From NCBI GenBank assembly GCA_027448865.1, contig DAIDMR010000069.1, positions 23,931 through 87,930 of the forward strand: a DNA stretch of 64,000 nt, in the 5' to 3' direction. The stretch's first letter is position 1. Every line of letters starts with the position of its first letter. The position numbers and the translations under genes were made by a program. Below the pieces are notes generated by a model. The model saw nothing but the letters and a program-made list of their open reading frames with translations. It was not told the DNA's origin and made no database searches. The DNA is from Vampirovibrio sp. (GTDB lineage: Bacteria; Cyanobacteriota; Vampirovibrionia; Vampirovibrionales; Vampirovibrionaceae). Shown piece by piece: positions 38,601 through 56,111 of the stretch.

Positions 38601-38678
38601 TCAACGATCTTGAACTTGTTTATCCTTCCGGTCATGTATAGCCTTTTCGGTCAGCCGGAAGCGTGTGAAGCTGCATGA
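35598..38678 (+). CDS. Heavy-metal efflux RND pump (HME family, CusA/CzcA-like), 1026 aa
   Basis: It has a 12-TM RND architecture. The TM4 segment [19 protein letters not shown] is HME-RND type and the length matches CusA/CzcA. An adjacent cusRS-like two-component system is present. Confidence 0.9.
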
Positions 38679-39835: not shown

Positions 39836-40765
39836 TTAATCCTGCCGAAGTAATATCGCTTCCAACCGCTCCAGTTGTTGGGCATGTTTTGCAGGAGCCT
39901 GAGTTATCAAGCGCTGAATGTTTTTAAGTTTCCATTGAACAGCGGGTAAATCCTTCAGAGCAGGGACTGGAACCAGTTCCCAATCGGGATTACCTTGCTT
40001 GAAACTGATCAGGAATTGTCGTTCCACTTCGCTGAGCCAGGCGGAAACTTCTTGGAACAGCCTTTCTCGGGTTGATAGATAATCTTCATAACTGAAAGGA
40101 ACCATGGTCATACCAGCAAACTGAGCATGATAAGCGGCTTCCTGGTCTTGATGTCTGGGACTGAGTATTTCATTAATGGGTCTCGGTGAACTGATGAGGC
40201 ATGTAATAAACCCAAGCCGTAGCTCGTCAGACAGCCCTTCATTCTCCAACAGGTAATAGATGTCAAAAAGGTCACGGGGATGTTGTCGATCTAGGGCGGC
40301 ACAGATCTTGCCACCAAACAGCTCGGCATGAGAAACCACGCTAATTGCAGCAAACTTGCCAAACTCCTCTTGAACCTTTTCGCTCACCTGCATAAGCCGA
40401 GATGGCACGATCGCTCCACGAAGAGTGGTATTAACTTCGATTTTAATTTGAGCAGATGGACTCTGGCAGGATAACTTCGCGTGTTGACCATCACTCTGTT
40501 GAACTGGTGTAACACGGACAGCAGGCAGGGTGCTTTCAATTCGGTTCTTGATCCGGCCCAGCGATTCAGTAATTTCCTCAAGTGCCTGCTGCCGGTTGTG
40601 AAAAGGAAGATAGGTTAAATCGATATCGACCGATAACCGTGGTAAATCTCGCACAAATAGATTAATGGCAGTGCCCCCTTTCAGGGCAAAGCACGCTTCG
40701 GTTGCCACATGCGGAAGAACCTGAAGTAGCAGCTCGACTTGTGCTCGGTATACCGCTGAAATCAT
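39836..40765 (-). CDS. AbiEii-like nucleotidyltransferase toxin (type IV TA / abortive infection), 309 aa
   Basis: It has the nucleotidyltransferase-fold motif GGTAINLFVRDLPRLSVDIDL (GSx9-13DxD pattern). It is located 4 bp-overlapped downstream of an AbiEi-like gene. Confidence 0.75.
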   Translation of the reverse strand: MISAVYRAQVELLLQVLPHVATEACFALKGGTAINLFVRDLPRLSVDIDLTYLPFHNRQQALEEITESLGRIKNRIESTLPAVRVTPVQQSDGQHAKLSCQSPSAQIKIEVNTTLRGAIVPSRLMQVSEKVQEEFGKFAAISVVSHAELFGGKICAALDRQHPRDLFDIYYLLENEGLSDELRLGFITCLISSPRPINEILSPRHQDQEAAYHAQFAGMTMVPFSYEDYLSTRERLFQEVSAWLSEVERQFLISFKQGNPDWELVPVPALKDLPAVQWKLKNIQRLITQAPAKHAQQLERLEAILLRQD

Positions 40766-41574
40766 AGCTCGGCCAGCTCCTTCGGGATGGTGATTTGGAA
40801 TTCAGCGTCAAAAACCCCACCTTTCACCAAACTGCGTTTCCCCTTGCCCAGATCAAGCTGCCCGAGGTTGATAAATTGCAACCACTGATGTCCAGCTTTT
40901 TGGGCCATGTAAAGAAAGAGTCGTTTAACCTTGATGGACGTGCAGTACTCCAGCATGTCTTGCAGCAGTTTGGGGCGTAGATTAACCATCCCTTCCATTA
41001 AGTGATAACACTCGACCAGATCCAGGTCATCCGGGGTCAAAAACAGACACTCCAGGATGGCGCGTTCAGGGGCCGATATCCATATATGAAAGGTCTTGCT
41101 TTCATACCTAATCAGGCCGATGTCCGGCGGGAGAAACGACGTTCTGACTGATCGAATGGAAGCCTTCAGGTCTGCCTTTTTGAACCACTGGGGAATATTG
41201 ACGTTTGTGGGGAGGAATAGAAATATCTCCTCTGTACCAGTTCGCAGATAATGGGATAGCCCTTGCATGGATAGGGCTGTAAGAGCACCCGCATGGATGG
41301 ACAAGCACGCCTGTGCCTGGAGGGCATAGAGCGCTCCCTGCCAGTGAAGTTCATCTGCAGGACGCTTGAAGGCTCCGGGGCCGACCGTCTCCAGCCAGCC
41401 GCTCTTTCGATAACGTTTTTGCAAATCTCTGGAGATGCCTAATTCCTCTAGCCAAGAGGCTAGGCAGACTGTGCCTGGTTTATGCTCGTTCAGGAATTGG
41501 TTTAATTTCTGTGATTTTTGGGTACTCATAGTACCAATATACTGGTTTTTATGAACCAACACAAGGCACTTCAT
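40762..41574 (-). CDS. AbiEi-like antitoxin/transcriptional autoregulator; alternative start at 41529 (MSTQ...)
   Basis: It is of AbiEi size and sits immediately upstream of the AbiEii-like nucleotidyltransferase. Two 15-bp palindromes GGTACTnATAGTACC lie at its 5' end, and one of them overlaps an internal ATG. Confidence 0.7.
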   Translation of the reverse strand: MKCLVLVHKNQYIGTMSTQKSQKLNQFLNEHKPGTVCLASWLEELGISRDLQKRYRKSGWLETVGPGAFKRPADELHWQGALYALQAQACLSIHAGALTALSMQGLSHYLRTGTEEIFLFLPTNVNIPQWFKKADLKASIRSVRTSFLPPDIGLIRYESKTFHIWISAPERAILECLFLTPDDLDLVECYHLMEGMVNLRPKLLQDMLEYCTSIKVKRLFLYMAQKAGHQWLQFINLGQLDLGKGKRSLVKGGVFDAEFQITIPKELAEL

Positions 41575-41816: not shown

Positions 41817-42833
41817 GTGGTTTTACAGTCAAGCGCATTGGGTTTCGCGCTTATTTTGAGGCATGTCATTTTGGCACAAGTCATATCTTCTGTGAGGGAA
41901 GAGCAGCATCAACGCTATCAGGCGCGGTTGCGGCAAGATATTCCCAGCTTTATTCAAGACTATATGAGCGATCCGGCCATTATCGAAATCATGGCCAATC
42001 CGGATGGCAGCGTTTGGGTGGATGACTTGCGCTCAGGCCAAAGGTCGGTAGGAACCATTGAAGCCTTTCAGACAGAATCCATTCTGAATGTCATTGCTTC
42101 TTTAAGCGGCACCGCGATTACCCAAGAAAATCCCATTCTGGAATGCGAATTGCCTTACGATGGCTCACGCTTTGCCGGGATGATCCCGCCCGTGGTGGAA
42201 AGGCCTATTTTTAGCATCCGGCGCAAGGCTGTCCAGATTTTTACGTTGGATGACTATGTGGCGGCTGGAATTTTGAGTTCCTCTCAAAAAGCTGTCATTG
42301 ATGCATGGATCAAAGCCAGGAAAAATATTTTGATTGTGGGCGGAACCTCCAGCGGCAAAACCACACTCATCAATGCCGTCATTCAGGCGATAACCGAGCA
42401 CAGCCCCAAACATCGCCTCATTTTGCTGGAAGATACGGTTGAACTTCAATCGACGGCTTCTAATATCGTGGCGATGCGAAGCAGCCGGGATGTTTCTTTG
42501 CAAGCATTGGTTAAAGCAACCTTACGCCATCGACCGGATCGCATCATTGTGGGTGAAGTTCGGGGTAAAGAGGCTTTTGATCTGTTAACGGCCTGGTCAA
42601 CCGGCCATCCCGGTGGTGTCGCGTCTTTGCATGCCAATAGCGCGGAAGGTGCGTTTTTAAGGCTGGAACAGCTTCTGGAACTTGCCACTCAATCCCCCAT
42701 GAAAACGCTCATTGGGGAAGCGGTGGATGCCATTGTCTATATTGAAAAGACTGGGAGTGGGCGCAAAGTGAAAGAGTTATTGACTGTTCAAGGCTACCGG
42801 AATGGCCAGTATCAGACTCAAACGGTTGTTTAA
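41817..42833 (+). CDS. trbB: Conjugal transfer ATPase TrbB (VirB11 family), 338 aa; true start may be internal
   Basis: It has the Walker A GGTSSGKTT and VirB11/PilT-class motifs (Asp box, and a His box near GHPGGVASLHANS). It is the first gene of the trb operon. Confidence 0.85.
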   Translation: MVLQSSALGFALILRHVILAQVISSVREEQHQRYQARLRQDIPSFIQDYMSDPAIIEIMANPDGSVWVDDLRSGQRSVGTIEAFQTESILNVIASLSGTAITQENPILECELPYDGSRFAGMIPPVVERPIFSIRRKAVQIFTLDDYVAAGILSSSQKAVIDAWIKARKNILIVGGTSSGKTTLINAVIQAITEHSPKHRLILLEDTVELQSTASNIVAMRSSRDVSLQALVKATLRHRPDRIIVGEVRGKEAFDLLTAWSTGHPGGVASLHANSAEGAFLRLEQLLELATQSPMKTLIGEAVDAIVYIEKTGSGRKVKELLTVQGYRNGQYQTQTVV

Positions 42834-42859
42834 GAAGTAATGAGAGAGAAGGGGAAACT

Positions 42860-43213
42860 ATGAAACATCATCAAACCCATAACCTGAACCGATGGACACC
42901 CGTCATCCTGGTTGGCAGCTTACTAGCTATTGCCGTCCTCTGCCCAGGTGTTGCTCATGCGGCCACTGCCGGTGGAACTGGCTTACCGTGGGAAACACCT
43001 ATTCAGCGCATTGTGGATAGTTTCTTGGGACCCATTGCCGTGGGTATGTGCCTGATTGGTTTTGTGGCAGGCGTATGGCGTTTTATGACCGGTGGTGAAA
43101 TGGATGGTTTTGTTCGCTCCATGGTGGTAATGGCCTTGTCCGGCTCCATCTTGATAGCCGCACGGCCTTTTATTAATAGCCTCTTTGGGGTGGGAGCCGT
43201 GTTAGGCCAATGA
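42860..43213 (+). CDS. trbC: TrbC conjugative pilin (VirB2 family), 117 aa
   Basis: It has a signal peptide and two hydrophobic helices. Position and size match trbC/virB2. Confidence 0.7.
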   Translation: MKHHQTHNLNRWTPVILVGSLLAIAVLCPGVAHAATAGGTGLPWETPIQRIVDSFLGPIAVGMCLIGFVAGVWRFMTGGEMDGFVRSMVVMALSGSILIAARPFINSLFGVGAVLGQ

Positions 43214-43497
43214 GCAACCTTCGACGGATTCCATTTTCTCGAACCCTGCACAGACCCAATTTGCTATTGGGTGGAGAACGCCCATGGGTGATTTTACTGG
43301 GTGTGATTGCCGCAGGCCTGATTCTTTCTGATATAAGCGTGTTGAAAATTCTAGTGGGCTTGGGCATTTGGACTGTGGGCCTTGGCTTGTTACGGCAAAT
43401 GGCCAAGGTCGATCCGTATCTCAGTCAAGTGTATTTTCGGCGTTTGAAATACCGCCGCTATTATCCGGCCCAGTCCAGGGCTAGATTGACTCGATAG
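43210..43497 (+). CDS. trbD: TrbD (VirB3 family), 95 aa
   Basis: It is a small membrane protein between the pilin and VirB4-like genes. It overlaps the trbC stop (ATGA). Confidence 0.7.
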   Translation: MSNLRRIPFSRTLHRPNLLLGGERPWVILLGVIAAGLILSDISVLKILVGLGIWTVGLGLLRQMAKVDPYLSQVYFRRLKYRRYYPAQSRARLTR

Positions 43498-43532
43498 GAC
43501 GCCATAGAGGGCCAGAGGAAGAAGAGGGACGC

Positions 43533-46019
43533 ATGTTATCCACCAAAGCATTTCAAACGGACTCGCAGGGATTACCAACCCTGCTCAACTATGCCGCCAT
43601 GGTTAAAAGTGGTGTGATGCTGGGAAAAGATGGCTCCCTAACGGCAGCCTTTGAGTGTGAAGGATTGGATATCGCTAGTACCACGCCCGCTCAACGGAAT
43701 TACCAGGCTGAAACCTTAAATAACATTTTAACCCAGCACTTTGGCGGCGGTTGGGTCAGTCATCATGAACTCATCCGAAAACCGTCAGCGGCTTACCCGG
43801 ATGCGGCCTTATCTGCTTTCCCGGATCCCATCAGCCGAGGGATTGAGGCGGAAAACCGTGCCAATTTTCTCAAAGAGGGCAATCATTTTGAAAGCGCCAA
43901 TATTCTGGTGGTGCGCTATAAATCCCCGTCACTTCAAAGCCATCGTTTGAGAAACCTGTTCTATGAGTCACGAAAGCAGGAGCCGGTCAATTCTCTGGAA
44001 GCAGATCTGACCTATTTTGAGCGGCAACTGGAAAATCTGGAAGATGCGTTGTCCAGCACCTTGAAAGTACGGCGGATGCGAGGCTATTCGGTCACGGATT
44101 CATACGGACAGGTTCATCTGCGCGATGATTTGGTGAATTACCTGAATTTCACCATTACCGGTGAATATCACCCCGTCAACTTGCCAGCCTGTGGCATGTA
44201 TCTGGATGGGTATCTGGGCATGCAAGACCTGATTCCTGGTGATACCCCAAAAATCGGCGATTATTTCATCGGCTGTATCAGCCTGACTGGTATGCCAAAT
44301 GAATCCTATCCCAATATTCTGGAAGCATTGAATCACTTACCGCTCGCGTACCGCTGGGTTACCCGCATGATTTATGTGGATGCCCATGAAGCCATTACAC
44401 TGCTCAAAAAGGAGCACCGGGAATGGATTCAAAAGTCGCAAAGCCCCTTTCATCAGATTTTCAAAATGAAGGGCGGCTTGGTGAACCAAGATGCTCTCAA
44501 TATGACACTGGACACCCAAGCGGTTATGACTGAGGTGCATAGCGGGCAAATGGCGTTTGGGTACTGCTCACAAGTCGTGGTCTTAATGAATCCAGATCGA
44601 CAAGCATTACTGGATAATGCGCGGCTGGTCATCCGGGAGATCAAACGGTTGGGCTTTAATTGCAGGCTCGAAACCTTGAATGCCATGGAAGCTTGGCTCA
44701 GCACTTTGCCGGGGCATACCCTGCCCAATATCCGGCGTCCCTTGGTTCATTCCAATCACTTGGCGCATATGATTCCAATTACCAGCATTTGGTCAGGCCG
44801 GGCTTCTTGTCAAAATCCGCTGTTCCCTCCCAATCTGCCCCCTTTAATGCATACCGCTACCACGGGCTCAACGCCTTTTCGGTTAAATCTGCATGTGGGT
44901 GACGTGGGTCATACATTGATTATGGGGCCAACGGGAGCTGGAAAATCGGTATTGCTTTCTACTCTGGCGGCACAGTTTCGACGTTATTCCAATGCCACTA
45001 TAACCGCCTTCGATAAGGGCCGCTCCATGTGGGCCTTGGTGGAAGCCTGTGGCGGCCAGCATTATGACATTGGCGGTGACGACAATGCCAGCTTGTCATT
45101 TGCGCCTCTTGCCCTGATTGATACGGATGCCGATATGGCCTGGGCGGAGGATTGGATCGCCACGGTTTATGAAGCTCGAACGGGAAAAGCCACTACCCCG
45201 CGCCAGAGTCAGGAAATCCACCGGGCCATGGGCATACTGCGGGAAACCAAAAGTCAGCAAGAGCGCTCTTTGTCCGATTTTCTGCTGACGCTGCAACAAT
45301 GTGGGGCGGAGGATGACCTCAAGGCTGCCTTGTCGTTTTACGCACTCAGCGGTCCTTACGGGAGCTTATTGGATGCCAGAACCGATGGACTGAAAGCCAG
45401 TTCGTTTACGGTCTTTGAAATCGAAGAGTTAATGGCCATGAAAGAGCGCATTGCCATCCCGGTACTGTTGTATCTGTTCCGGCAATTTGAACGCAACTTG
45501 CAAGGTCAACCCGCCTTGTTACTGCTGGATGAGGCCTGGGTGATGCTGGGACATCCGGTCTTTCGAGGAAAAATTCGCCAATGGCTGAAGGAACTCAGAA
45601 AGAAGAATTGCGCGGTGGTCTTGGCGACTCAAAGCCTGTCGGATGCCGTGCACTCCCAGATTTATGATGTGTTACTGGAAAGCTGTCCGACAAAAATCCT
45701 GCTGCCCAATGAAGAGGCCGATAAGGAAGGTACCAGTGAACATCCGGGTCCACGTGATCTTTACGCCATGATGGGATTGAATGCCGCTGAGAGTCAGATC
45801 ATTAAAACAGCGACCAAGAAGCGGCAATATTATTACATGTCCCCGGAAGGGCGCAGGCTATTTGATTTGGGGTTGGGGCCACTGGCCTTATCCTTCGTGG
45901 CGGTTTCCGATAAGGAAACTCTGTCACATTTGAGCCAGCTCAAGGCAGAGTACGGGGCAACATGGCCATTTGTTTGGTTGAAAGAGAGAGGAGTGGAGTA
46001 TGACAAATTGGTGGGTTAA
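43533..46019 (+). CDS. trbE: TrbE conjugal transfer ATPase (VirB4 family), 828 aa
   Basis: It has the Walker A GPTGAGKS and Walker B ALLLLDEAW. Size and context match VirB4/TrbE. Confidence 0.9.
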   Translation: MLSTKAFQTDSQGLPTLLNYAAMVKSGVMLGKDGSLTAAFECEGLDIASTTPAQRNYQAETLNNILTQHFGGGWVSHHELIRKPSAAYPDAALSAFPDPISRGIEAENRANFLKEGNHFESANILVVRYKSPSLQSHRLRNLFYESRKQEPVNSLEADLTYFERQLENLEDALSSTLKVRRMRGYSVTDSYGQVHLRDDLVNYLNFTITGEYHPVNLPACGMYLDGYLGMQDLIPGDTPKIGDYFIGCISLTGMPNESYPNILEALNHLPLAYRWVTRMIYVDAHEAITLLKKEHREWIQKSQSPFHQIFKMKGGLVNQDALNMTLDTQAVMTEVHSGQMAFGYCSQVVVLMNPDRQALLDNARLVIREIKRLGFNCRLETLNAMEAWLSTLPGHTLPNIRRPLVHSNHLAHMIPITSIWSGRASCQNPLFPPNLPPLMHTATTGSTPFRLNLHVGDVGHTLIMGPTGAGKSVLLSTLAAQFRRYSNATITAFDKGRSMWALVEACGGQHYDIGGDDNASLSFAPLALIDTDADMAWAEDWIATVYEARTGKATTPRQSQEIHRAMGILRETKSQQERSLSDFLLTLQQCGAEDDLKAALSFYALSGPYGSLLDARTDGLKASSFTVFEIEELMAMKERIAIPVLLYLFRQFERNLQGQPALLLLDEAWVMLGHPVFRGKIRQWLKELRKKNCAVVLATQSLSDAVHSQIYDVLLESCPTKILLPNEEADKEGTSEHPGPRDLYAMMGLNAAESQIIKTATKKRQYYYMSPEGRRLFDLGLGPLALSFVAVSDKETLSHLSQLKAEYGATWPFVWLKERGVEYDKLVG

Positions 46020-46752
46020 AGCAGGGCTCGGCATTGCCTTAAGCGTGGTATTGACCACACCTTACCTATTGCCAGCCAAGGCGCAAAATGCGGTCATCTG
46101 TAGCAATTGTGGGACCGAGTGGACGCAACTTATGAATAAAGCCATGATGGCCAAACAACTGGCGACACAAGCCCAGCAACTCAGCACCCAAATCAATCAA
46201 TATAAAGATATGCTGACCAATTCCAACGGGGTATCTACCCATGTTTGGGGACAGGCCATGCAGGATTTTGCAAAGCTCCAGAACTTAATGAGCCAAAGCC
46301 GATCAATGGCTTATTCCGCAAGCAATTTGGATGGGCAATTCTCTAGCCGGTACGAAACTTATGACTCATACCTAAACCGCACTATGGGTGCCAAAGATTG
46401 GCAGAACAAATATACGCAGTGGTCACAAGAAGGCTCGGACAATGCACGCTATGCATTAAAAGGCTTGGGACTACAAGCGTCTCAAATGCAAAATGAACAA
46501 GCCTTGATGCAACAACTGCAATCCATGGCAGGAACCGCACAAGGGCGAATGCAGGCACTGCAAGTGGCTAACATGATGGCTGCTCAAAATGTCGAGCAAG
46601 TTATGAAACTGCGCCAAATGATGATGCTGCAATTGCAAATGCAAGCCAATTACCTGGCCCAACAACAAGATCGAATGGCCGCTCAAGAAGCCGCTCATCA
46701 ACGGTTTATGAATGCGCCGAGAGTCCGTAATGATAATGGCAAGACCTATTGA
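46000..46752 (+). CDS. trbJ: TrbJ (VirB5-like), 250 aa
   Basis: It has a signal peptide, a Q-rich coiled-coil C-terminal region, and sits after trbE. Confidence 0.7.
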   Translation: MTNWWVKAGLGIALSVVLTTPYLLPAKAQNAVICSNCGTEWTQLMNKAMMAKQLATQAQQLSTQINQYKDMLTNSNGVSTHVWGQAMQDFAKLQNLMSQSRSMAYSASNLDGQFSSRYETYDSYLNRTMGAKDWQNKYTQWSQEGSDNARYALKGLGLQASQMQNEQALMQQLQSMAGTAQGRMQALQVANMMAAQNVEQVMKLRQMMMLQLQMQANYLAQQQDRMAAQEAAHQRFMNAPRVRNDNGKTY

Positions 46753-46991
46753 AAGGAACACTTATGAATATCTTTAACCAAGTTTTCACTATGAAGCTAT
46801 GGATGCTTATGAGCTTAATAATAGGCACCGCCATAATATCTACTTGCCTTACAACTGTTTTGTCTAAACCTTCCCAATCTCAAGCACTGGTATGCCCTCC
46901 ATGCAAACCAGTCTCGGCTTCAGACCCAGTAAAACCAAGCCCAAATCGTAAATCGTACAGGGTACCCAATGATAACGGCAAGACTTATTAA
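46722..46991 (+). repeat. About 30-bp imperfect direct repeats (GTCCGTAATGATAATGGCAAGACCTATTGA at 46723-46752; GTACCCAATGATAACGGCAAGACTTATTAA at 46962-46991) flanking the trbK-like gene
   Basis: The repeats match at 24 of 30 nt. Both encode the peptide tail R(V/P)(R/P)NDNGKTY* at the ends of trbJ and the trbK-like ORF. Confidence 0.7.
46749..46991 (+). CDS. TrbK-like small lipoprotein (putative entry-exclusion protein); real start probably ATG at 46764
   Basis: It is a small ORF with a hydrophobic leader and a Cys (IISTCLTT). It lies between trbJ and trbL, the position of trbK in Ti/Tn4371-type trb operons. It is flanked by about 30-bp direct repeats that duplicate the trbJ 3' end. Confidence 0.45.
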   Translation: MKGTLMNIFNQVFTMKLWMLMSLIIGTAIISTCLTTVLSKPSQSQALVCPPCKPVSASDPVKPSPNRKSYRVPNDNGKTY

Positions 46992-48252
46992 CGGAGAAAT
47001 TACTTTAATGCCCAAATCTTGGCTCTTTAGGCATCTTTTGTTTGCAATATTAGGTTTGGTGGTTTTGTTCTTAAACACGACTCATCCATCTTTTGCGCAA
47101 ACCATTAGTGATAACTTTTTGGAGCCAATTGTTGATCAGTATGCTAACCATACGTCTGCATGGGAAGGGCCACTGCAACGCTTTGCCATGAGCATATTTT
47201 GGCTGCTCGTGCTGATCGATGTGGTCTGGACTGGGGCAGAGCTGATTATCCACAAAAGTGATTTGGGGGAGTGGGCCATTACGGTTGCGAAGCAACTCCT
47301 AACCATTGGCTTTTTCTATGCCTTGCTGACTCATTCCTCAGAATGGGCCAATGCGTTGATTCAAAGCTTTCGACTAGCGGGGGATGCGGCCAGTTCGGCT
47401 GCCAGCGGCAGGACTGGCCTGCAACCCTCCGATATTTTTGATTCTGGGGTCAATATTGCGGTGACTTGCATTAAGTCCTTCAAAATAGAAAAGCCCATTG
47501 ACAGTTTGGCAATGGCTTTTGGGGCTATCATCATGCTGATTAGTTTTGCTCTAATCGCGGCATTACAGGTTGTGGCCTTGGTGGAGAGCTACATTTTCAC
47601 CTATGCAGGCATTCTATTCCTGGGTTTTGGGGGAAGTCGTTTTACGCGCGATTTTGCCCAACGCTATCTGGTGGGCATTATAGCCGTTGGGGCAAAACTT
47701 TTTGTAATCCAGCTCATTATTGGATTGGCTGTGGTGCTGGTTAAACAGTGGGATGCCGATATTGATGCTAATCAGGCTATTCTCGATATTGGCCTGGTAC
47801 TCCGCATTGCGGGTGGATCTATCGTTTTCCTGGCATTGGCCAAGATGATTCCATCGATGGTGCAGGGCATGATCAATGGCGCGTCCTATAGTTCTGCTAC
47901 CACCATGATCAACACCACCATGGCCGGAGCCAATGTTGGGGCAGCAGCCGCCAACGGGGTAGGGGCTATTGCCACTGCCGGGCTGGGTGGGCTGTCCAGC
48001 CTGGTTGGACAGCAAGGTTGGGCGGATGGACTTTATAGCGCCTCCGGTGAAATGGCCAACCGGGCCAATCATCATGCGGGAGATGCTTTTAGCCATTCTT
48101 TTGATGCCAGTGCTGGGAGTATGGGCCAATACATGCCAGGCGCTTTTACTCCCGGTAAGTTCGATGAGATGAAGCCTGCGTTTCGAGGGGATGAGTTCGG
48201 TGAGGATGTGGGAAGTGGTGCTCAGGAAGAGCGCAATACCATTGGGGTTTAA
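46969..48252 (+). CDS. trbL: TrbL (VirB6 family) polytopic membrane protein, 427 aa
   Basis: It has multiple TM helices and a Gly/Ala-rich C-terminal segment. Its position follows trbJ/K. Confidence 0.8.
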   Translation: MITARLINGEITLMPKSWLFRHLLFAILGLVVLFLNTTHPSFAQTISDNFLEPIVDQYANHTSAWEGPLQRFAMSIFWLLVLIDVVWTGAELIIHKSDLGEWAITVAKQLLTIGFFYALLTHSSEWANALIQSFRLAGDAASSAASGRTGLQPSDIFDSGVNIAVTCIKSFKIEKPIDSLAMAFGAIIMLISFALIAALQVVALVESYIFTYAGILFLGFGGSRFTRDFAQRYLVGIIAVGAKLFVIQLIIGLAVVLVKQWDADIDANQAILDIGLVLRIAGGSIVFLALAKMIPSMVQGMINGASYSSATTMINTTMAGANVGAAAANGVGAIATAGLGGLSSLVGQQGWADGLYSASGEMANRANHHAGDAFSHSFDASAGSMGQYMPGAFTPGKFDEMKPAFRGDEFGEDVGSGAQEERNTIGV

Positions 48253-48287
48253 ACACAAGAAACAGAAACGATGAAAGAAGAGATTGC

Positions 48288-49019
48288 ATGAACAAACAAA
48301 GAGACTACTCGGCCTCATCAAATTTCGTTGTGCCTTTTTTCAGAGAGGAGCGACGAACCACCGACTCTGAAGCTGTAATGGCGATGCACCATTTAGCCCA
48401 GAAACGCTGGAATGAAGAGTTTGGCGGCTTTATTCATGAAAAGAAAGTTTGGCAACGGGTCGCGCTTATTAGTTTGACTGTAAACCTTCTAGCCATCGCT
48501 GGCATTGCCTATATTGGTGCTCAAAACAAGATGGTGCCCTATGTGGTGGAAGTCGACAAATTGGGAGCGGCGGTTGCCGTGCAACGGGCTGATACACCCA
48601 TGGTCCCAAACACATCCGCCATTAAAGCCCATCTGGCTCGGTGGATTCAAAATACCCGCAGTATTTACCTGGATGTAGCGGCTGAAAAGCAGGCATTAAA
48701 AGAAGCCTATGCGTCGATCAACAACCATGGCCCAGCTTTGGCCACGTTGAACGACTATTTTCAAACTCATGAGCCATTTAAACAGGCAGAAAATGAATCC
48801 GTCAGTGTGCAAGTGGAATCCGTTCAGCCAATTAGTGAAAAAACCTGGCGCATTGAATGGCATGAAGATCATCGAGCTAGAGACGGTCGCGTCATTAACA
48901 GCATGCAACAGCAAGCCACTGTTTCGATTGTGATCAGCCCGCCATCGGATGAAGCCACCATTTTAATGAACCCGCTGGGAATCTATATCGATTCCTTCAG
49001 TTGGTCGCAACGATTGTAG
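48288..49019 (+). CDS. trbF: TrbF (VirB8 family), 243 aa
   Basis: It has a single N-terminal TM plus a periplasmic NTF2-like domain. Position is consistent with trbF. Confidence 0.8.
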   Translation: MNKQRDYSASSNFVVPFFREERRTTDSEAVMAMHHLAQKRWNEEFGGFIHEKKVWQRVALISLTVNLLAIAGIAYIGAQNKMVPYVVEVDKLGAAVAVQRADTPMVPNTSAIKAHLARWIQNTRSIYLDVAAEKQALKEAYASINNHGPALATLNDYFQTHEPFKQAENESVSVQVESVQPISEKTWRIEWHEDHRARDGRVINSMQQQATVSIVISPPSDEATILMNPLGIYIDSFSWSQRL

Positions 49020-50002
49020 AGGGAGAGTCATTGATGAAGCGTTATACATTCGGGATCCTTTTGGGTGTCACCCTATTGAGTGCCAGTCTGACAGTGGCTT
49101 TGGCTCAAGATCTTTCCGGCATTGAGAATATCAGCGTGCATTACATGCCGGGTAGCTATCAACCCATCCCGGTCAACAAAACCTATTTCAACTATCAGCC
49201 AAAAACACAGGCTCAGCCAGTAAAGGTTGTACCCTTAGAGTCCAAGATGAAACCAGCCAGTGAAACGCCTTTAGTCGAGAAGAGACAACAGCAAACAGAT
49301 TCACCAATTCTCAGTCCAAATGGAAGTCTCATTTTTCCCTTCGGAGCCAATCTACCCAATGTCATTTGTGCCCCTTTGCACGTTTGTGAAGTCAGCCTGC
49401 AACCGGGGGAAACCATTCAGCAAATCGATGTGGGCGATACACTCCGTTGGCAAGTGAAACTGGCCCGAAGTGTTCGAGATGGGGTGGAAACTTCTCACTT
49501 GATCATTAAACCGACTGAAGTGGGCATTGTGAGTAATTTGGTAGCCATTACAGACAGGCGCACCTATACCATTCAGTTGGTTAGCCGAAAAGAGCGGATG
49601 TGGATGCCCAAAGTGGCTTTTTCGTACCCGGATGATATGCAGGCCAACTGGAATGCTTATTTTGCCCAATCGAAGCACAACTCAGCGGTTACTTTGGCAA
49701 GCAACGGCCTATCCACTTCGCCGCTTGATTTTAAATACCAACTTAAAGGCGATAAACCGGTTTGGCGGCCTATGCGGGTTTATACCGATCACGTCAAAAC
49801 TTACATTGACTTGCCACCGGCTGCAAAAAACGAGGAGATTCCCGCCTTGGTGTTGCTTGGCCCAGGCTCGACTGAACAACTGGTCAACTACCGCTTGGAT
49901 GGCAATCGGTTCATCGTGGATAAAGTGATCCACCGGGCCTCTTTGATTAGCGGGGTCGGACGCAATCAGGAACGGGTCGATATCGTGAGAGAGGGGAGCT
50001 AA
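49001..50002 (+). CDS. trbG: TrbG (VirB9 family), 333 aa
   Basis: It has a signal peptide, the VirB9 C-terminal beta-domain motifs, and fits the trb gene order. Confidence 0.85.
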   Translation: MVATIVEGESLMKRYTFGILLGVTLLSASLTVALAQDLSGIENISVHYMPGSYQPIPVNKTYFNYQPKTQAQPVKVVPLESKMKPASETPLVEKRQQQTDSPILSPNGSLIFPFGANLPNVICAPLHVCEVSLQPGETIQQIDVGDTLRWQVKLARSVRDGVETSHLIIKPTEVGIVSNLVAITDRRTYTIQLVSRKERMWMPKVAFSYPDDMQANWNAYFAQSKHNSAVTLASNGLSTSPLDFKYQLKGDKPVWRPMRVYTDHVKTYIDLPPAAKNEEIPALVLLGPGSTEQLVNYRLDGNRFIVDKVIHRASLISGVGRNQERVDIVREGS

Positions 50003-50008
50003 CGGATC

Positions 50009-50788
50009 ATGCGGCATTGGATATCCCTGTTTCTACTAAGCAGCCTACTAACCGGCTTCTCTAGCCCAGCGAATGCAACGACGCCTTACCATAGCAAGGC
50101 ACACACCACTTATCGGAAGCCTGCACAACGGAAAACGCCACCCAGGGTACAGCAGCACTATTCCTTTATTCCACCCAGACAACCCTCTGAAATCATTCAG
50201 CGGCTTCAAGCTCCGCTTCAAGGCCGCGTTGTTCAAGAGCAGGTAAATCCGACATCCACCACAAGCACACCGCCTGCCGCTCCAATCAGTGAACCATTAC
50301 CGGTTACCACGCGGCTTAAAAAGCCTATACCCAAAAGACTTGGGCTTTGGGAGAGTATGAAAAACCGGATTCGATCCAGTCACTCTTTGCCAGAACGGAT
50401 TACCCCACAAAACTCCTGGATTGAACACCTCTCGGATTCGGAAACTGCCTCTCTGAGTGAGATTGTTGCTCAAGTGATTCAAGCCCAAATTGCCAGCCCA
50501 CAAGCTACGCTAGTATTGGCTGATCCGCCTCAAGCCCAGCTCAAGAGCCACTTTATTCCCAGCTTGATCTATGCGCTTCAAAAACGGGGCTATGCCTTTG
50601 CCGGAAAGAATGACAGTGTGCAGAATACCTATTGGATTCGCTGCCGTATCCGGGCCTTTGAGCAAGGCCTGCTCGTTCAAATTAAAATCAACGGGCAAGA
50701 AACAAGCCGGTTGTATGCACGCTCTCAAACAGGGGCACTGGTGGCGGCTTCACCCATGACTCGTCTGGGAATAGGAGGTCAGCCCTAA
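50009..50788 (+). CDS. TrbH-like Pro-rich protein (VirB7 functional position), 259 aa
   Basis: It has a signal peptide, a Pro/Thr-rich linker, and sits between trbG and trbI. It is longer than canonical TrbH and no lipobox Cys was seen. Confidence 0.45.
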   Translation: MRHWISLFLLSSLLTGFSSPANATTPYHSKAHTTYRKPAQRKTPPRVQQHYSFIPPRQPSEIIQRLQAPLQGRVVQEQVNPTSTTSTPPAAPISEPLPVTTRLKKPIPKRLGLWESMKNRIRSSHSLPERITPQNSWIEHLSDSETASLSEIVAQVIQAQIASPQATLVLADPPQAQLKSHFIPSLIYALQKRGYAFAGKNDSVQNTYWIRCRIRAFEQGLLVQIKINGQETSRLYARSQTGALVAASPMTRLGIGGQP

Positions 50789-52305
50789 TGGATTCAGAAA
50801 TGCAGAGTTCTAGCCCATCCAAGCAGAACGAGACAACGCCTCATGCACCAGTCTCATCGGAACATTCGAATGAAACTCCAGCGGATAAGGCCGCCAGAAC
50901 CATTCCCAATGAAACATATCGCCTATCCGCATCCAAACCAATACCACAGGCAGATCCAGCAAGCCCTTCAGATACTAGAAGTTATAGTCATACGCCTTAT
51001 CAAGCCAAGCTCAAAGGGTTGGAACCCAACGGACTTTCAACCCATATGGCCCAATCACATCCTTTCAATGACCAGCTCAGTAAATGGCCAATCGTTGTCG
51101 GAAGCACCTTGGTTGCCCTGGCACTTTGCACGATTTTATATAACTGGATTGTACCGAAGCCTGCAATGAGTGCACAAAGTGGCGGTCCTGCACAGCAGAA
51201 GCCTGGTCCCGGTGCACCAACGCATCTGTTAGAAAAAGCACCAAACAGTGTATTGGTAGACCACTCGGCGCAGTCTACGCTCAAGGAAGAGCCTTTGATA
51301 CCGGAATCCTCGCCGCGCAGTAATAATCCTGATGCGATTAACACGAATGCGTATTCAGCGGCAGAACCCGTCGATTACCAAGCCCAGGCACAATTACAAC
51401 GTCAGCTTCAACAGGAACAAGAGGCCGCCCAACGAGAGGCGGCTCGATTAGCCCGCTTGCAAAGTGCCAAAGAATCCAACTCTACGGTTTATTCTGCGGC
51501 TTCATCCAATCAATCTTATTCATCCCAGGGCCAGCAAACTACAGCTGGACTGAACTCAACAGATACTTCCACTATCCTAGAGGCTAGCAATAATCGGCCT
51601 TCTGGCCCGGTTTTAAAAGGGCATTTAAATACTCTGGAAGGCTCGAACTATCTGCCGAATACCCGAGTTCCAGCTATTTCGCCTTATGAGGTTAAAGCAG
51701 GAACCGTCATTCCCTCGATTATGATTAGCGGTATTAACAGCGAGCTACCGGGGCAACTGATCGCGCAAGTAGTCCAGAATGTGTATGATTCGGCGACCGG
51801 TCGCTACCTACTCATACCGCAAGGGGCAAAACTGGTTGGAGCATATGATCATCAGGTTTCAACGGGTCAAAAACGGGTTTTAATTGTCTGGAACCGGATT
51901 ATCTACCCAGATTCATCTTCTTTGGATTTGGGCGCAATGGCGGGACTGGACCAGAGCGGCTATGCCGGATTTAACGACAAAACTAATAATCATGTCTGGC
52001 CCACCTTTAGAAACGCGTTGCTTTTATCCGCTATTACCGCAGGCGTACAACTCTCTCAACCGAGAGCCCAACAGGGAAATTATGCCTATTCCAGCCAGCA
52101 AATGATCGCAGGCTCGTTGGGTATGCAGCTCAATCAACTGGGCCTCTCCAGTTACCAGAACCAGGTCAATATGGCTCCCACGCTGACCATCCGGCCTGGC
52201 TACCGTTTCAATGTAATGGTGTCCAAGGATATGGTATTACCGCCATGGTCTACCAATGGGAATACCATTTCAACCGGCACGCTACAAACCGCCCAACAGT
52301 GGTGA
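50788..52305 (+). CDS. trbI: TrbI (VirB10 family), 505 aa
   Basis: It has an N-terminal cytoplasmic segment, a TM, a Pro/Gln-rich linker, and a conserved C-terminal beta-barrel (…YDHQVSTGQKRVLIVWNRIIYPD…). It is the last trb gene. Confidence 0.85.
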   Translation: MDSEMQSSSPSKQNETTPHAPVSSEHSNETPADKAARTIPNETYRLSASKPIPQADPASPSDTRSYSHTPYQAKLKGLEPNGLSTHMAQSHPFNDQLSKWPIVVGSTLVALALCTILYNWIVPKPAMSAQSGGPAQQKPGPGAPTHLLEKAPNSVLVDHSAQSTLKEEPLIPESSPRSNNPDAINTNAYSAAEPVDYQAQAQLQRQLQQEQEAAQREAARLARLQSAKESNSTVYSAASSNQSYSSQGQQTTAGLNSTDTSTILEASNNRPSGPVLKGHLNTLEGSNYLPNTRVPAISPYEVKAGTVIPSIMISGINSELPGQLIAQVVQNVYDSATGRYLLIPQGAKLVGAYDHQVSTGQKRVLIVWNRIIYPDSSSLDLGAMAGLDQSGYAGFNDKTNNHVWPTFRNALLLSAITAGVQLSQPRAQQGNYAYSSQQMIAGSLGMQLNQLGLSSYQNQVNMAPTLTIRPGYRFNVMVSKDMVLPPWSTNGNTISTGTLQTAQQW

Positions 52306-52364: not shown

Positions 52365-52556
52365 ATGAACATTCATCAACCGAATCAACCTGTAATCAGT
52401 CGTGATATGACAGATTTTGGGGTTCCCGGCGTGGTAATTGAGGTGGATCCGATTGAAGCTGAAGCCTGGGGATCCTTTGAGGAAACCGCCATTACCGAAC
52501 AAGACGCCATTGACTCAGAAATAGATGTTGAATTGGATGTGGAGGCTGCCCAATGA
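52365..52556 (+). CDS. Small highly acidic protein (63 aa) translationally coupled to the ArdC-primase gene
   Basis: It has a plausible RBS (aggaggaaaaaataATG), a C-terminal half that is almost pure D/E (EAEAWGSFEETAITEQDAIDSEIDVELDVEAAQ), and a stop that overlaps the downstream start (ATGA). Confidence 0.4.
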   Translation: MNIHQPNQPVISRDMTDFGVPGVVIEVDPIEAEAWGSFEETAITEQDAIDSEIDVELDVEAAQ

Positions 52557-54757
52557 GCGATTACGCCAAAACCGTGTCTGAATCTATCATTAGGCAACTA
52601 CAAGAGGGAACCGCCCCATGGCTACGACCCTGGCAAACTGGAGAACGTTATCTTCCGTTTAACCCAACCACGGGCAATGCATATAAGGGCATTAACGCCA
52701 TTTGGTTGCTCTCTATTACGGAAGCCAGAGGCTATGGGGATACCCGCTGGATGACCTATAAGCAAGCGAGCAGTCTGGACGCTCAAGTGAACAAAGGCGA
52801 AAAAGGAACCATGATCCAGTTCTGGAAGTGGCACGATGAAATTCTGAAGCGGGATGATGAAGGCAAGCCAGTTTTGGATGAAAATGGTAATCCAGCCAAA
52901 GTTTTGATACGCCTACAATGCCCTAAAGTTCGTACTGCAATCGTCTTTAATGCCCAGCAAATCAACGGTTTACCGGCTATTGAAAACAAAGCCCTCCTCA
53001 CTGAGTGGGAGCGCCACCTGGAAGCCGAAGCCATCTTGAAGGATTCCCAAGCCAGGATTGAGCACGTACCAGGAAACCGGGCCTTTTACCGGCCATCCAG
53101 CGATAGCATTACACTGCCACTCAGAGAGCAATTTCCTACGGCAGATAATTATTATGCAACCGCTCTGCATGAATTGGGCCATTGGACCGGGCATGAGTCC
53201 AGGCTGAATCGTGACATCAAGCATCCGTTTGGTTCGGAGGCTTATGCCAAAGAAGAATTGCGGGCGGAAATCGCGTCCCTGATGCTGGGTGAAAAACTCA
53301 GTATCGGGCACGATCCAGGGCAGCATGTTGCCTATATTGGATCCTGGATCAAGGCGTTAGAGGAAGACCCGCGAGAAATTTTCAGGGCGTCAGCCGATGC
53401 TGAAAAAATCACCCAGTATCTTCTGGGCCGTGAAATGCAAAAGGTCCAGAGCCAAGACATTGAAGAACAGGCAAAAATTCAAGTGCCTGTATTAAAAATT
53501 CAGGAGGAGAGTGCATTGAGAACTACGCCTGAGCGGGTCTATTTGGATGTCCCCTATGCCGAAAAAGAGGCAGTCAAGAAACTAGGAGCCAAGTGGGACC
53601 GACAGGAGAAATCCTGGTATGTTCCGGCAGGCATTGCGTTAGAACCCTTGAAACAATGGTTAAAGAGTCAAAATACGGTTTCCAAGGATCCACAGGCCGA
53701 GTTTGCCTCAGCACTGCAAGAGGCAGGCTTACAGTTGAAAGGCTTACCCATTATGGATGGAAAGCTGCATCGAGTCCCTGTAGAAGGTGATAAGCACGGT
53801 CAAAAGAATGGCGGGTATGTTGGCTTTATGGACGGGCATCCTGCAGGCTACATCAACAACTACAAAACAGGTCTGGAAACCACTTGGAAATCAGAACAGC
53901 CGGTGAATCGTTTAAGTGACAGTGAGCGCTTGCGTCTGGAGCAAGAAGCTACGCAACGGCAATTGAAACGGGCACAGGAAAGAGAGGAGCTTCAAACTCA
54001 AACTGCGGATTTGGTGGCCGATTGCTGGCTGAACGCTGCCCCCGCGCAAAATCACCCGTATTTGGACCGAAAAAGTGTTCAAGCCCATGGCTTAAGAGTC
54101 AATACCTGTGGCTCGGTGGAAATTGGTCATGCTCAGCCTGATGAGCCCGCCCAGCAATGGAGTGGTCATGGAGAATTGCTCATCCCCATTGTCGACATCA
54201 ATGGCCGCTTCTGGGGTGCCCAATCCATTGATGATCAAGGGCGTAAGAGTTTCCCTCGGGGTGGCCGGATTCAGGGCGGGCACCACGTGTTAGGGCATAT
54301 CCAAGAGGGGCAGCCCATTTTAATTGCAGAAGGGTACGCCACTGCCGCGACGGTGCATGAATCTTCGGGACTGCCGGTTGTGGTGGCGTTTAATTCTGGA
54401 AACGTGCCGGTTGTCGCGCAAGCGTTTCGAGACAAGCACCCAGCCAGCACATTGGTAATTGCCGGGGATAACGATCACAGCAAACCAATTGAGAAGAATG
54501 TCGGACTCCAGAAAGCCCAAGAGGCCGCTCAAAAGGTGGATGGTCATCTGCTACTGCCTGAATTTGAAAAAGGCTCAACAGGAACAGACTGGAATGATTT
54601 GGCTCAGGAAAAGGGAAAAGATGCAGTTCGGCTTCAGTTGCAAGTAGGTATATCGCTCATCAAGGCGCAAGCCAAGCCGTTCATACAACAAGTCTCATCC
54701 GCTCTTGAGGCGAAAGTCAATCTCACTCCCACGAAGCCTCAGGCCTTGACGCGATGA
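52553..54757 (+). CDS. ArdC-like antirestriction/ssDNA-binding N-domain plus zincin-like metallopeptidase plus C-terminal TOPRIM primase domain (TraC-like), 734 aa
   Basis: It has an ArdC N-terminal domain and the HExxH metallopeptidase motif ALHELGHWTGH. The C-terminal region has Toprim-like acidic motifs (LIAEGYATAATV..., VIAGDNDH). The fusion architecture is common on conjugative elements. Confidence 0.75.
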   Translation: MSDYAKTVSESIIRQLQEGTAPWLRPWQTGERYLPFNPTTGNAYKGINAIWLLSITEARGYGDTRWMTYKQASSLDAQVNKGEKGTMIQFWKWHDEILKRDDEGKPVLDENGNPAKVLIRLQCPKVRTAIVFNAQQINGLPAIENKALLTEWERHLEAEAILKDSQARIEHVPGNRAFYRPSSDSITLPLREQFPTADNYYATALHELGHWTGHESRLNRDIKHPFGSEAYAKEELRAEIASLMLGEKLSIGHDPGQHVAYIGSWIKALEEDPREIFRASADAEKITQYLLGREMQKVQSQDIEEQAKIQVPVLKIQEESALRTTPERVYLDVPYAEKEAVKKLGAKWDRQEKSWYVPAGIALEPLKQWLKSQNTVSKDPQAEFASALQEAGLQLKGLPIMDGKLHRVPVEGDKHGQKNGGYVGFMDGHPAGYINNYKTGLETTWKSEQPVNRLSDSERLRLEQEATQRQLKRAQEREELQTQTADLVADCWLNAAPAQNHPYLDRKSVQAHGLRVNTCGSVEIGHAQPDEPAQQWSGHGELLIPIVDINGRFWGAQSIDDQGRKSFPRGGRIQGGHHVLGHIQEGQPILIAEGYATAATVHESSGLPVVVAFNSGNVPVVAQAFRDKHPASTLVIAGDNDHSKPIEKNVGLQKAQEAAQKVDGHLLLPEFEKGSTGTDWNDLAQEKGKDAVRLQLQVGISLIKAQAKPFIQQVSSALEAKVNLTPTKPQALTR

Positions 54758-54983
54758 TGTTGACTGACGCTCACCTAATTTTTTCGTCTCTCAATTCCAT
54801 CTCTCTTAATCTTCTTGGTTCACAATCAGGACATGATGAATGGATATATCCGGTGTATAAGCATTCGGGTTTACTTTTTGATTTCAGTTGAATTAATTGG
54901 TAGAAGGCTTTCTAATCTGCTTTGCGCAGATCTGGAAAAAGTCCTATGCATCAAATAAACTCTGCTGTAAAATGCCTTAATCG

Positions 54984-56111
54984 TTGATTAGACCAGAGAG
55001 GCTTCGAGTGGCTGGGGAAATTAGAAATAGCCAAGATGCTTTTACGTTCCAGGATATACCCGAGCCAAACAGTGTTATTGCTACCGCTGCAAAGATTCAA
55101 TTTGGGAAGCCCATCCCTCCTCAGCAGCAGGTCTTCCTATATAGCGCTGATGAATGGGAGTATTTCATCGAAGAGTGGGTGCATAGCCAGAAACAAAATT
55201 ATACAAAGGTTCGTCGATATGCTGGCGCTAATGACATGGGCATTGACGTTGCTGGATTTGTTGATGATACTGGTCTCCAAAGTGATTGGGACAATTTTCA
55301 ATGTAAGCACTATGATGGTGCACTAGCCCCCAGTACAGCAGCGGCTGAGGTGGCAAAAATTCTTTGGCATTCATTTCAAGGTAAATATATACCCCCACGC
55401 GCTTACTATTTTATAGCTCCTAAAGGTTGCGGGACTAGTCTCTCCAGGCTTTTAGACAACCCATCAAACTTGAAGAAGCATATTATAGAGAAGTGGGATA
55501 AGCAGTGTGCAAAGGCAATCACTGCAACACGAGTGATCCTTCTTGAAGAATCCTTTCTTGCCTATATAAACAATTTTGATTTCTCAATATTTAAGGCTCG
55601 CACTTTATTGGAGATTATCGATGACCATCGCAAGACTCCCTATTATGCTAATAGATTTGGAGGTGGATTGCCCGATAGGCCCATAGTGAAACGGCCTCCT
55701 GAGAATCTGGCAGATGGAGAAAGTCGTTATATTGAGCAACTTTTTGAAGCCTATAGCGATCATACAAAAAGTGAAGTCACACACCTGGAAAGTTTGAGGA
55801 GCGATCTGATTGATCATTATCATCGGCAACGAGAAACGTTTTATCACGCCGAAGCCCTGCGGAATTTCTCACGAGATACTGTTCCACCTGGCACGTTTGA
55901 GCAACTACAAGATGAGGTTCATGCCGGAGTGATTGACATTGAGGGACTTTTACACGCCGATGGGTATGCTCGTTTAAATGAAATCCTCAAGTCAGCCACG
56001 CAGCTTCAAATGACCTCAAATGCCCTGATGAGTGTTGTGAAAATCCAGGATAGAAAAGGAATCTGTCATCAGCTCTCTAACGAAGACCGTTTGCGCTGGA
56101 GGAAGCCATGA
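54984..56111 (+). CDS. Putative effector of a Lamassu/ABC-3C-like defence cassette: N-terminal PD-(D/E)xK-like nuclease motifs plus C-terminal helical domain, 375 aa (TTG start; GTG at 55008 is an alternative)
   Basis: It has the E-D-QxK pattern (DEWEYFIEEW ... GIDVAGFVDD ... DNFQCKHY) with restriction-endonuclease-fold spacing. Its stop overlaps the next gene by 4 bp, and its GC is lower than the flanking trb/tra genes. Confidence 0.5.
   Translation: MIRPERLRVAGEIRNSQDAFTFQDIPEPNSVIATAAKIQFGKPIPPQQQVFLYSADEWEYFIEEWVHSQKQNYTKVRRYAGANDMGIDVAGFVDDTGLQSDWDNFQCKHYDGALAPSTAAAEVAKILWHSFQGKYIPPRAYYFIAPKGCGTSLSRLLDNPSNLKKHIIEKWDKQCAKAITATRVILLEESFLAYINNFDFSIFKARTLLEIIDDHRKTPYYANRFGGGLPDRPIVKRPPENLADGESRYIEQLFEAYSDHTKSEVTHLESLRSDLIDHYHRQRETFYHAEALRNFSRDTVPPGTFEQLQDEVHAGVIDIEGLLHADGYARLNEILKSATQLQMTSNALMSVVKIQDRKGICHQLSNEDRLRWRKP

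Follow-up and report, generated by a model that had tools for sequence, protein, structure and literature searches.

Matching C-terminal tails of TrbJ and a small TrbK-like protein in P-type conjugation operons, and a possible basis for entry exclusion

A shared tail in a Vampirovibrio trb operon

This work concerns a small gene in a conjugation operon of Vampirovibrio sp., carried by a 64,000-nucleotide stretch of contig DAIDMR010000069.1 (the whole of this stretch is called the window below). The operon, in the order trbB-C-D-E-J-(small ORF)-L-F-G-H-I at 41817-52305 (+), belongs to the P-type (Trb) conjugative type IV secretion systems (T4SS) by its gene order and by family-level hidden Markov model (HMM) matches, found in Pfam (TrbB, C, D, E, L, F and G) and in NCBIfam. 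The small open reading frame (ORF) lies between trbJ (virB5) and trbL (virB6), which is the slot of the entry-exclusion gene trbK, and its product ends with nearly the same peptide as TrbJ. We found that the two tails are held matched at the level of the peptide, and that they change together from one element to another. The features concerned, all on the + strand, are the following.

46000..46752 (+): trbJ, encoding a VirB5-like minor pilin or stalk-tip protein of 250 residues, between trbE and trbL; 188.5 bits on NCBIfam TIGR02780 TrbJ_Ti (cut-off 100.55)
46720..46749 (+): C-terminal tail of TrbJ, RVRNDNGKTY (repeat copy 1), followed by the stop codon at 46750-46752
46753..46757 (+): AAGGA ribosome-binding site, read from the sequence, 6 nt 5′ of the small-ORF ATG
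46764..46991 (+): small TrbK-like ORF, 75 residues from its ATG (ORF list, homologue in the same slot, alignment A3)
46794..46862 (+): hydrophobic segment K11-L33 (KLWMLMSLIIGTAIISTCLTTVL), a putative signal-anchor membrane helix (alignment A3)
46893..46904 (+): CPPC motif (C44-C47); C44 is nearly invariant in alignment A3, and CPPC is present in close relatives
46959..46988 (+): C-terminal tail of the small ORF, RVPNDNGKTY (repeat copy 2), followed by the stop codon at 46989-46991
47008..48252 (+): trbL, VirB6-like (Pfam PF04610; TIGR02783, 222.5 bits for a cut-off of 128.85)

The 3′ end of trbJ reads AGA GTC CGT AAT GAT AAT GGC AAG ACC TAT TGA (ending at 46752), and that of the small ORF AGG GTA CCC AAT GAT AAC GGC AAG ACT TAT TAA (ending at 46991). 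A first-pass annotation of this DNA had noticed that the second repeats the first at 24 of 30 nt, and a repeat search indeed paired 46720-46750 with 46959-46989, 239 nt apart, with 25 of 31 nt matching. That both ORFs end with NDNGKTY was likewise confirmed, on coordinates and sequences: RV-x-NDNGKTY is the C-terminus of TrbJ and of the small ORF, with 9 of 10 residues identical, and BLASTP aligned the two proteins, anchored at both C-termini, with E = 5e-4. The stretch between the repeats, previously put at some 210 bp, measures about 208 nt and encodes the small ORF alone, as had been said. No further 31-mer with a match of at least 21/31 to the trbJ copy was found on either strand of the 64-kb window, and in its six reading frames the two ORF ends were the sole strong matches to the tail peptide. 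Together with the recurrence of this relationship in dozens of independent loci (see below), this excludes chance. An Rfam search of 46400-47300 gave no match at E ≤ 1, so that an RNA element was rejected, and no promoter or terminator was found on the + strand within the repeat region.

By HMM, the small ORF belongs neither to TrbK_Ti, nor to TrbK_RP4, nor to EexN. It has no match in Pfam or NCBIfam, and none to TIGR04361, PF10907, TIGR04359 or NF033894 even at E = 10; in the same searches, Ti TrbK scored 97.4 and 74.3 bits on TIGR04361 and PF10907. In a database of 5.8 billion proteins one cluster only resembles it, and an 80%-identical homologue is found at the corresponding position in two metagenome contigs. 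Thirteen family members, the window ORF included, were aligned (alignment A3) and revealed a common architecture made of a short N-terminus, one hydrophobic segment, a near-invariant Cys, a variable proline-rich linker and the tail. The hydrophobic segment comprises 22-23 residues after Lys11 and is conserved as KLWxLxxxxxGTAxxS. The protein had initially been described as hydrophobic or lipoprotein-like. The first term stands, as a predicted single-pass membrane protein, and the second was rejected: the ISTC cysteine (Cys28) is missing in 11 of the 12 other aligned members and kept in L001 only, so that there is no conserved lipobox. The lack of conservation of this cysteine argues for a signal-anchored membrane protein like Ti TrbK, not a lipoprotein like RP4 TrbK, and the predicted topology is N-terminus in, C-terminus out. 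The placing of the ORF in a trbK slot proved right, as it lies in a genuine P-type trb operon and has the architecture of a Ti-type TrbK. It represents a new sequence family within the TrbK functional kind, with a putative exclusion activity.

Tails that change together from element to element

In the window's close relatives, whose TrbJ is 86-97% identical, the tails of TrbJ and TrbK change in step. Both proteins end with KTY in the window, L001 and L005, with ETF in L003 and L004, and with NDDGKTY in L006. In more distant relatives, MTDLY, DGRKY and DGRKF were each found as matching tails in both proteins. Further cognate pairs were TPNNNGKGY, RVPNNNGKRF and PYNDGERF (each in both proteins), RHHAKVTQDGY with RHHAKLTKGGW, and LPTKGGKTY with LPTRGGKTY. 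The octopine Ti plasmid has ..IRGGQTMEPRW in TrbJ and ..IRGGQEMKPRW in TrbK, and Roseibium has ..GQDFKPQW in both. The tail pairs are ..SGGQQMQPRW with ..SGGQQMAPRWGDN in Skermanella, ..YEGFKGGSL with ..YEGFKGGTLK in Acidovorax, ..NKGY with ..DKGY in Pseudomonas aeruginosa, and ..YRASPARTW with ..FKPSPKREW in R751. The C-terminal consensus of the TrbJ family is [DN]-G-[KREQ]-x-[YF].

Scanning metagenomes with a TrbJ alignment brought 80 further loci, and for the test of tail pairs the small ORF was picked blind, by position and length. Over 65 distinct tail pairs, cognate tails had on average 5.3 identities out of 10, and non-cognate tails 1.3; the observed mean was attained in 0 of 10,000 permutations. 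Where trbJ and trbL are separated by 150 nt or more (74 loci), 71 loci had a small ORF whose C-terminal region matched the tail of its own TrbJ, compared to 1.2% for non-cognate tails. The matching spans more than 15 unrelated tail types and extends across phyla, Ti and IncP-1 R751 included. BLASTP of TrbJ against TrbK gave E values of 7e-8 (Ti), 7e-11 (Roseibium) and 4e-5 (R751), with 23-35 residues aligned and always anchored at both C-termini, and the C-terminus of Ti TrbK matches the last 25 positions of an NCBIfam TrbJ model. We conclude that the tails change together from element to element, and that this rule is general across P-type trb systems.

The TrbJ tail was also found intact in trb operons devoid of the small ORF (L009, L011, L017, L023, L025 and L028; likewise L048, L071, L082, L107 and L108). 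As it is kept where the small ORF is missing, the tail is a TrbJ feature copied by TrbK. Operons with no gene between trbJ and trbL, such as L009 and L107, would be natural exclusion-less variants. Two side observations were made on the small ORFs themselves. Tail-matched ones had been overlooked by gene callers in two loci (L105, 2253-2507; L110, 2244-2479). In four others (L067, L073, L092 and L095) the tail motif stands away from the C-terminus, a ...PRW motif being internal and followed by an acidic extension of ∼13 residues (e.g. PRWGNGEGQGDETPDN).

The differences between the two copies indicate the level at which they are matched. Over the last 10 codons of the window copies, 4 differences are synonymous and 1 is a replacement (Arg/Pro); the stop codons differ as well. 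In eight related loci, taken from Vampirovibrio genomes, Melainabacteria genomes and metagenomes, 2-5 synonymous differences separate the copies and 6-9 of 10 residues are identical (9/10 in the window's clade). In each Vampirovibrio-type locus, 4-5 of the 10 codons differ synonymously while 9 of 10 residues agree. Over 67 non-identical loci, the same codon was used at 52% of 529 degenerate positions with identical residues, compared to 45% expected from local codon usage; the window copies share 5 of 9 codons for 4.1 expected, and those of its clade 4-5 of 9. Codon sharing is therefore near expectation while residues stay identical, which means that selection acts on the peptide. A recent duplication or an insertion scar should yield differences regardless of coding, and a conversion tract should yield none: the observed pattern fits neither. 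We conclude that selection holds both tails matched at the peptide level, not at the DNA level.

The tails lie in, or at the edge of, a hypervariable region, for which three more features are needed.

46741..47148 (+): hypervariable island, running from the last 3 trbJ codons through the small ORF to the TrbL signal peptide and the first ∼17 mature residues
46741-46743 and 46980-46982 (+): Lys at tail position -3, in TrbJ and in the small ORF respectively
47134..47136 (+): TrbL Asp43 (mature residue 13), candidate contact for tail residue -3, from charge covariation

Between the window and L003, mismatches per 100 nt amount to 1-11 in the trbJ body, 33-51 in the island and 1-16 outside the island. 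The trbK slot is thus the most variable part of the operon, as anticipated, and inspection of the trbJ-trbL junction in related operons, the check that had been recommended, showed that different small ORFs do fill this slot. The island starts within the three final codons of trbJ and stops at around TrbL residue 47; in TrbJ, two tail positions are the only columns that separate ETF from KTY loci. The early suggestion that elements swap exclusion specificity survives in an altered form. The TrbJ tail end, trbK and the TrbL N-terminus vary together, and these three seem to be the unit that moves or evolves as a whole.

Within the island, TrbL residue 43, nine residues ahead of a conserved Trp, follows the charge of the tail. 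When tail residue -3 is Lys or Arg (or neutral), residue 43 is mostly Asp; when it is Glu or Asp, residue 43 is His (three loci), Arg (two) or Ala (one). Residue 43 was thus basic in 5 of the 6 loci with an acidic tail and in none of the 22 others (p = 6e-5, with statistics that ignore phylogeny). Among loci that had not been used to find the column, the counts were 3 of 4 versus 0 of 18 (p = 0.0026). A salt bridge between tail residue -3 and TrbL residue 43 may define specificity, and we regard this covariation as a lead, not as proof.

Proposed tail mimicry and other explanations

To account for these observations, we think it probable that TrbK, tethered to the membrane, mimics the TrbJ (VirB5) tail and competes for the docking site of that tail. 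The docking partner and the competition step that we infer are the following. TrbJ, which caps the T4SS stalk and pilus, would have its tail docked on TrbL (VirB6). TrbK would carry a copy of this tail at the end of a flexible, proline-rich tether on the periplasmic side of the inner membrane. With it, TrbK would occupy the place where TrbJ docks in an incoming cognate machine, which is most likely on TrbL. Competition for this site would block the formation of a productive mating channel.

A docking of this kind is documented in R388, for which co-evolving VirB5-VirB6 pairs were tabulated together with cryo-electron microscopy distances (Mace et al. 2022, PMC9259494, Supplementary Table 4). 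Essentially all high-scoring pairs join VirB5 207-228, the C-terminal tail, to VirB6 124-147, and the top-scoring ones are mostly within a few Å, the closest all-atom contacts being about 2.3-4 Å (PMC9259494). Since these pairs use the VirB5 C-terminal tail, this tail is the VirB6-docking element in R388. As for exclusion itself, TrbJ and TrbK each contribute to it in Ti plasmids, and each protects recipients from the RP4 T4SS. The C-terminus of IncP-1 TrbK is essential. Cloned RP4 trbK alone, in a plasmid-free recipient, is cited as sufficient for exclusion. In F, SXT and IncC, the donor target of exclusion is TraG, a VirB6-family protein. Tail mimicry would account for the exclusion exerted by each of TrbJ and TrbK in Ti and RP4, for the need for an intact TrbK C-terminus and for the element specificity of exclusion, and it would put the donor-side target in the VirB6 family, as with TraG of F and SXT.

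Several points weigh against mimicry. The exclusion role of the small ORF and the function of the tail are predictions made from sequence. The R388 contacts fall on VirB6 124-147 (PMC9259494), unlike the N-terminal segment of TrbL that is implicated here. For a recipient TrbK to reach the TrbL of a donor, the donor VirB6 protein has to be exposed in the mating junction, which has been argued for TraG of F and SXT and is assumed for TrbL. The VirB5/Eex pairs of IncN and IncW share 4-5 residues only, which is not significant by BLASTP. The TrbL-43 covariation comes from 6 acidic-tail loci (about 5 lineages) uncorrected for phylogeny, and in the discovery pair the change at residue 43 could be hitch-hiking within a recombined island. 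The AlphaFold2 (AF2) model of TrbJ, built from a 70-sequence alignment, places the tail after the last predicted helix, with a low confidence (predicted local distance difference test score, pLDDT, 47.6) that makes it too poor for a fold search or for tail placement. Finally, pKPC_UVA01 requires TrbK in the donor as well as in the recipient, which a simple decoy does not predict.

This last requirement keeps alive another explanation, in which the tail is a common address tag, that is an assembly or localisation signal bringing TrbJ and TrbK to the same place in the T4SS of their own cell (TrbL, for example) or to the same processing enzyme. In that case TrbK would act as an accessory subunit, with exclusion coming from TrbK-TrbK contacts, or from contacts of TrbK with other proteins, not from competition with TrbJ. 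The identical tails fit this equally well, the VirB5 tail touches VirB6 inside one cell (PMC9259494), and a need for TrbK on both sides of the pKPC_UVA01 mating suggests that it belongs to the donor apparatus. On the other hand, if trbK of RP4 suffices in a plasmid-free recipient, as cited, its partner there must be derived from the donor. Moreover, TrbK is dispensable for transfer, and recipients are protected by TrbJ alone too, an effect most simply explained by an activity of the tail itself. We therefore hold an address tag to be unlikely, although worth keeping in mind.

A second alternative is that gene conversion homogenises the two 30-nt repeats, which are 239 nt from each other, so that the identity and covariation of the tails would arise as a by-product at the DNA level, without any shared function. 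Direct repeats so close to each other can recombine, and some loci go in this direction: L029, L037, L053 and L064 share 8 of 11 codons, above expectation, and GAA and TTT are found in both copies of both ETF loci. However, conversion would wipe out synonymous differences, and half of the codons differ where 9 of 10 residues are identical. Neither the overall codon sharing nor that of the window's clade (given above) departs much from what codon usage predicts, and the pattern holds over the >15 tail types and across phyla. Concerted evolution is thus very improbable as the cause of the match.

The first-pass annotation had read the repeats as the footprint of a cassette replacement or of a duplication-mediated insertion. 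In this view, a cassette would have come in through duplication of the 3′ end of trbJ, leaving the repeats as its scar, and recombination between them would swap exclusion genes. In its favour, the slot is hypervariable and the ORF is missing from some elements, and the resemblance of TrbK to the last 23-35 residues of TrbJ in some families (Ti, Roseibium and R751) is compatible with an ancient partial duplication. The footprint was not borne out. The copies differ mainly at synonymous sites, and the repeat turned out to be a conserved coding motif of TrbK-like proteins and TrbJ, conserved as protein in 71 of 74 loci; this is a finding that the annotation itself had named as refuting the footprint. 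A full TrbJ tail is kept by elements devoid of the ORF, and no mobile-element genes or sites were seen nearby. Nor do the repeats bracket the variable module, since the island begins inside the last three codons of trbJ and overruns the second repeat by ∼160 nt. We give this explanation even less credit than gene conversion; an ancient partial duplication of the trbJ 3′ end may still have been the origin of trbK. Least credible of all is that the small ORF is no gene, its repeat copy being what is left of a decaying pseudo-duplicate of the 3′ end of trbJ. The ORF has no Pfam or NCBIfam match and a single database homologue, and gene callers overlooked its equivalent in L105 and L110. But it has a ribosome-binding site and an ATG, fits tightly between its two neighbours trbJ and trbL, and conserves its membrane helix, Cys and tail; no relative has lost the open frame, although nucleotide divergence reaches 40-50%.

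Known exclusion systems, element context and significance

Among known systems, Ti TrbK (TIGR04361; PF10907, DUF2749) is one of the closest. Like the window ORF, it occupies the trbJ-trbL slot, is about 75 residues long, has an N-terminal hydrophobic anchor without lipobox (a predicted anchor in the window ORF) and ends with a tail matching its cognate TrbJ, and it is reported to act in exclusion together with TrbJ. It differs in having no detectable sequence similarity with the window ORF, which has the NDNGKTY tail, the CPPC motif and the proline-rich linker, and whose host is a Melainabacterium and not a proteobacterium. IncP-1 TrbK of RP4 and R751 (TIGR04359) shares the slot, a similar size and, if the topology predicted for the window ORF is right, a periplasm-facing position at the inner membrane, and the R751 tail resembles that of R751 TrbJ (the BLASTP match reported above); unlike the window ORF, which has no conserved lipobox and no HMM match, these are lipoproteins (LVAGC).

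EexN of IncN and IncW (NF033894) is also encoded between virB5 and virB6, and bears a faint echo of the VirB5 tail (..ASPSIN and ..NSPKI in R46; ..QGMPTIQ and ..DGMPKIR in R388). The EexN proteins are lipoproteins of unrelated sequence, and the likeness, limited to 4-5 residues, does not reach significance. The motifs GMPxI (R388; L112, 5206-6113) and SPxI (R46; L102, 7471-8419) differ in step with VirB5 and are too short for statistics, so we treat the tail rule in IncN and IncW as a lead only. It is conceivable that the whole class of exclusion proteins whose genes lie between virB5 and virB6 homologues consists of membrane-tethered mimics of the VirB5 tail, the element docking VirB5 on VirB6; we advance this tentatively, as somewhat less probable than its contrary.

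Two other kinds of system offer a partial parallel. Tpf (XAC2611, DUF4189) is a periplasmic protein that blocks X-T4SS fratricide by binding VirB5 (bioRxiv 10.64898/2026.05.09.723464). As proposed for the small ORF, it is a recipient-side envelope protein that gives kin-specific protection and acts through the VirB5 axis; in contrast, Tpf is globular, disulfide-rich and binds VirB5, whereas the small ORF imitates the VirB5 tail and is predicted to bind the partner of VirB5. The same preprint presents Tpf-VirB5 as the first known case of an exclusion protein interacting directly with its T4SS target, and its authors ask whether Eex-VirB5 interactions occur elsewhere (10.64898/2026.05.09.723464). 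In the TraS-TraG (F) and Eex-TraG (SXT/R391, IncA/C) systems, a recipient inner-membrane protein recognises a donor VirB6-family protein in an allele-specific manner. These resemble what we propose, except that their determinants are unrelated sequences (cytoplasmic in SXT) and that mimicry of a third T4SS subunit is not known for them. No mention of the shared TrbJ/TrbK tail was found in the open-access literature on TrbK, TrbJ, VirB5 and entry exclusion, a coverage that is incomplete.

Other details of the operon are as follows. An in-frame TTG at 46749 is present for the small ORF. Two starts are candidates for trbL. With the ATG at 46969, from which the NCBI-derived P0122 (427 aa) is translated, trbL and the small ORF have 23 nt in common; the ATG at 47008 is preceded by GGAG and yields a normal signal peptide. 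The ORF in trbH position (50009-50788 (+), 259 aa) matches TrbH models only weakly, in its C-terminal part (E about 0.004), and is extended at the N-terminus by a long proline-rich stretch, and TrbI matched its subfamily model NF010405 at 250.2 bits, under the 386-bit cut-off of this model. In TrbJ, C34-x-x-C37 (46099-46110) is a CxxC nearly invariant at the mature N-terminus of the window's TrbJ family; this motif and the CPPC of the small ORF, present in two proteins that share a tail, may be redox-active or disulfide-forming pairs. No relatives of trbJ were found in a scan of viral contigs.

Around the operon, an AbiEii toxin and AbiEi antitoxin pair (type IV toxin-antitoxin, abortive infection) is encoded directly upstream, at 39836-41574 (-). 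Just 3′ of trbI come a fusion of ArdC-N, zincin metallopeptidase, DUF5710 and Toprim, then an ABC-3C CTD6 protein (52553-56111 (+)). A TraG/VirD4 coupling protein and a MobA/VirD2-type relaxase in the window make the conjugative unit complete, and a resistance-nodulation-division (RND) efflux pump and HipA are encoded near them; the coupling protein, relaxase, efflux and HipA regions lie at 59195-63081 (-), 35598-38678 (+) and 29415-30662 (+). Efflux genes have been reported on V. chlorellavorus plasmids, which the RND pump of the window echoes.

The tail hypothesis addresses two puzzles, namely the mechanism and donor-side target of TrbK, and the fact that TrbJ, an essential pilus-tip protein, also excludes. 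It can be tested by mutation, as it predicts specificity determinants down to single residues. If mimicry of the VirB5 tail held for the whole class, exclusion specificity would be a TrbJ/TrbK tail code of ∼3-10 residues, read by the N-terminal region of TrbL, with tail, trbK and TrbL N-terminus forming a single evolving or recombining module (46741-47148 here). It would also bring exclusion of the P, N and W types together with that of F and SXT, in which the donor target belongs to the VirB6 family, and editing a few codons could reprogram exclusion. The tail match also provides a simple annotation rule for exclusion genes that belong to no sequence family. It would help to predict which plasmids exclude each other, and tail mimicry suggests the design of recipients, or of peptides, that block the transfer of particular resistance plasmids. 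In Vampirovibrio, the Trb system had been proposed to be a predation device; the presence of a complete exclusion module argues that the Vampirovibrio elements still take part in conjugation from bacterium to bacterium.

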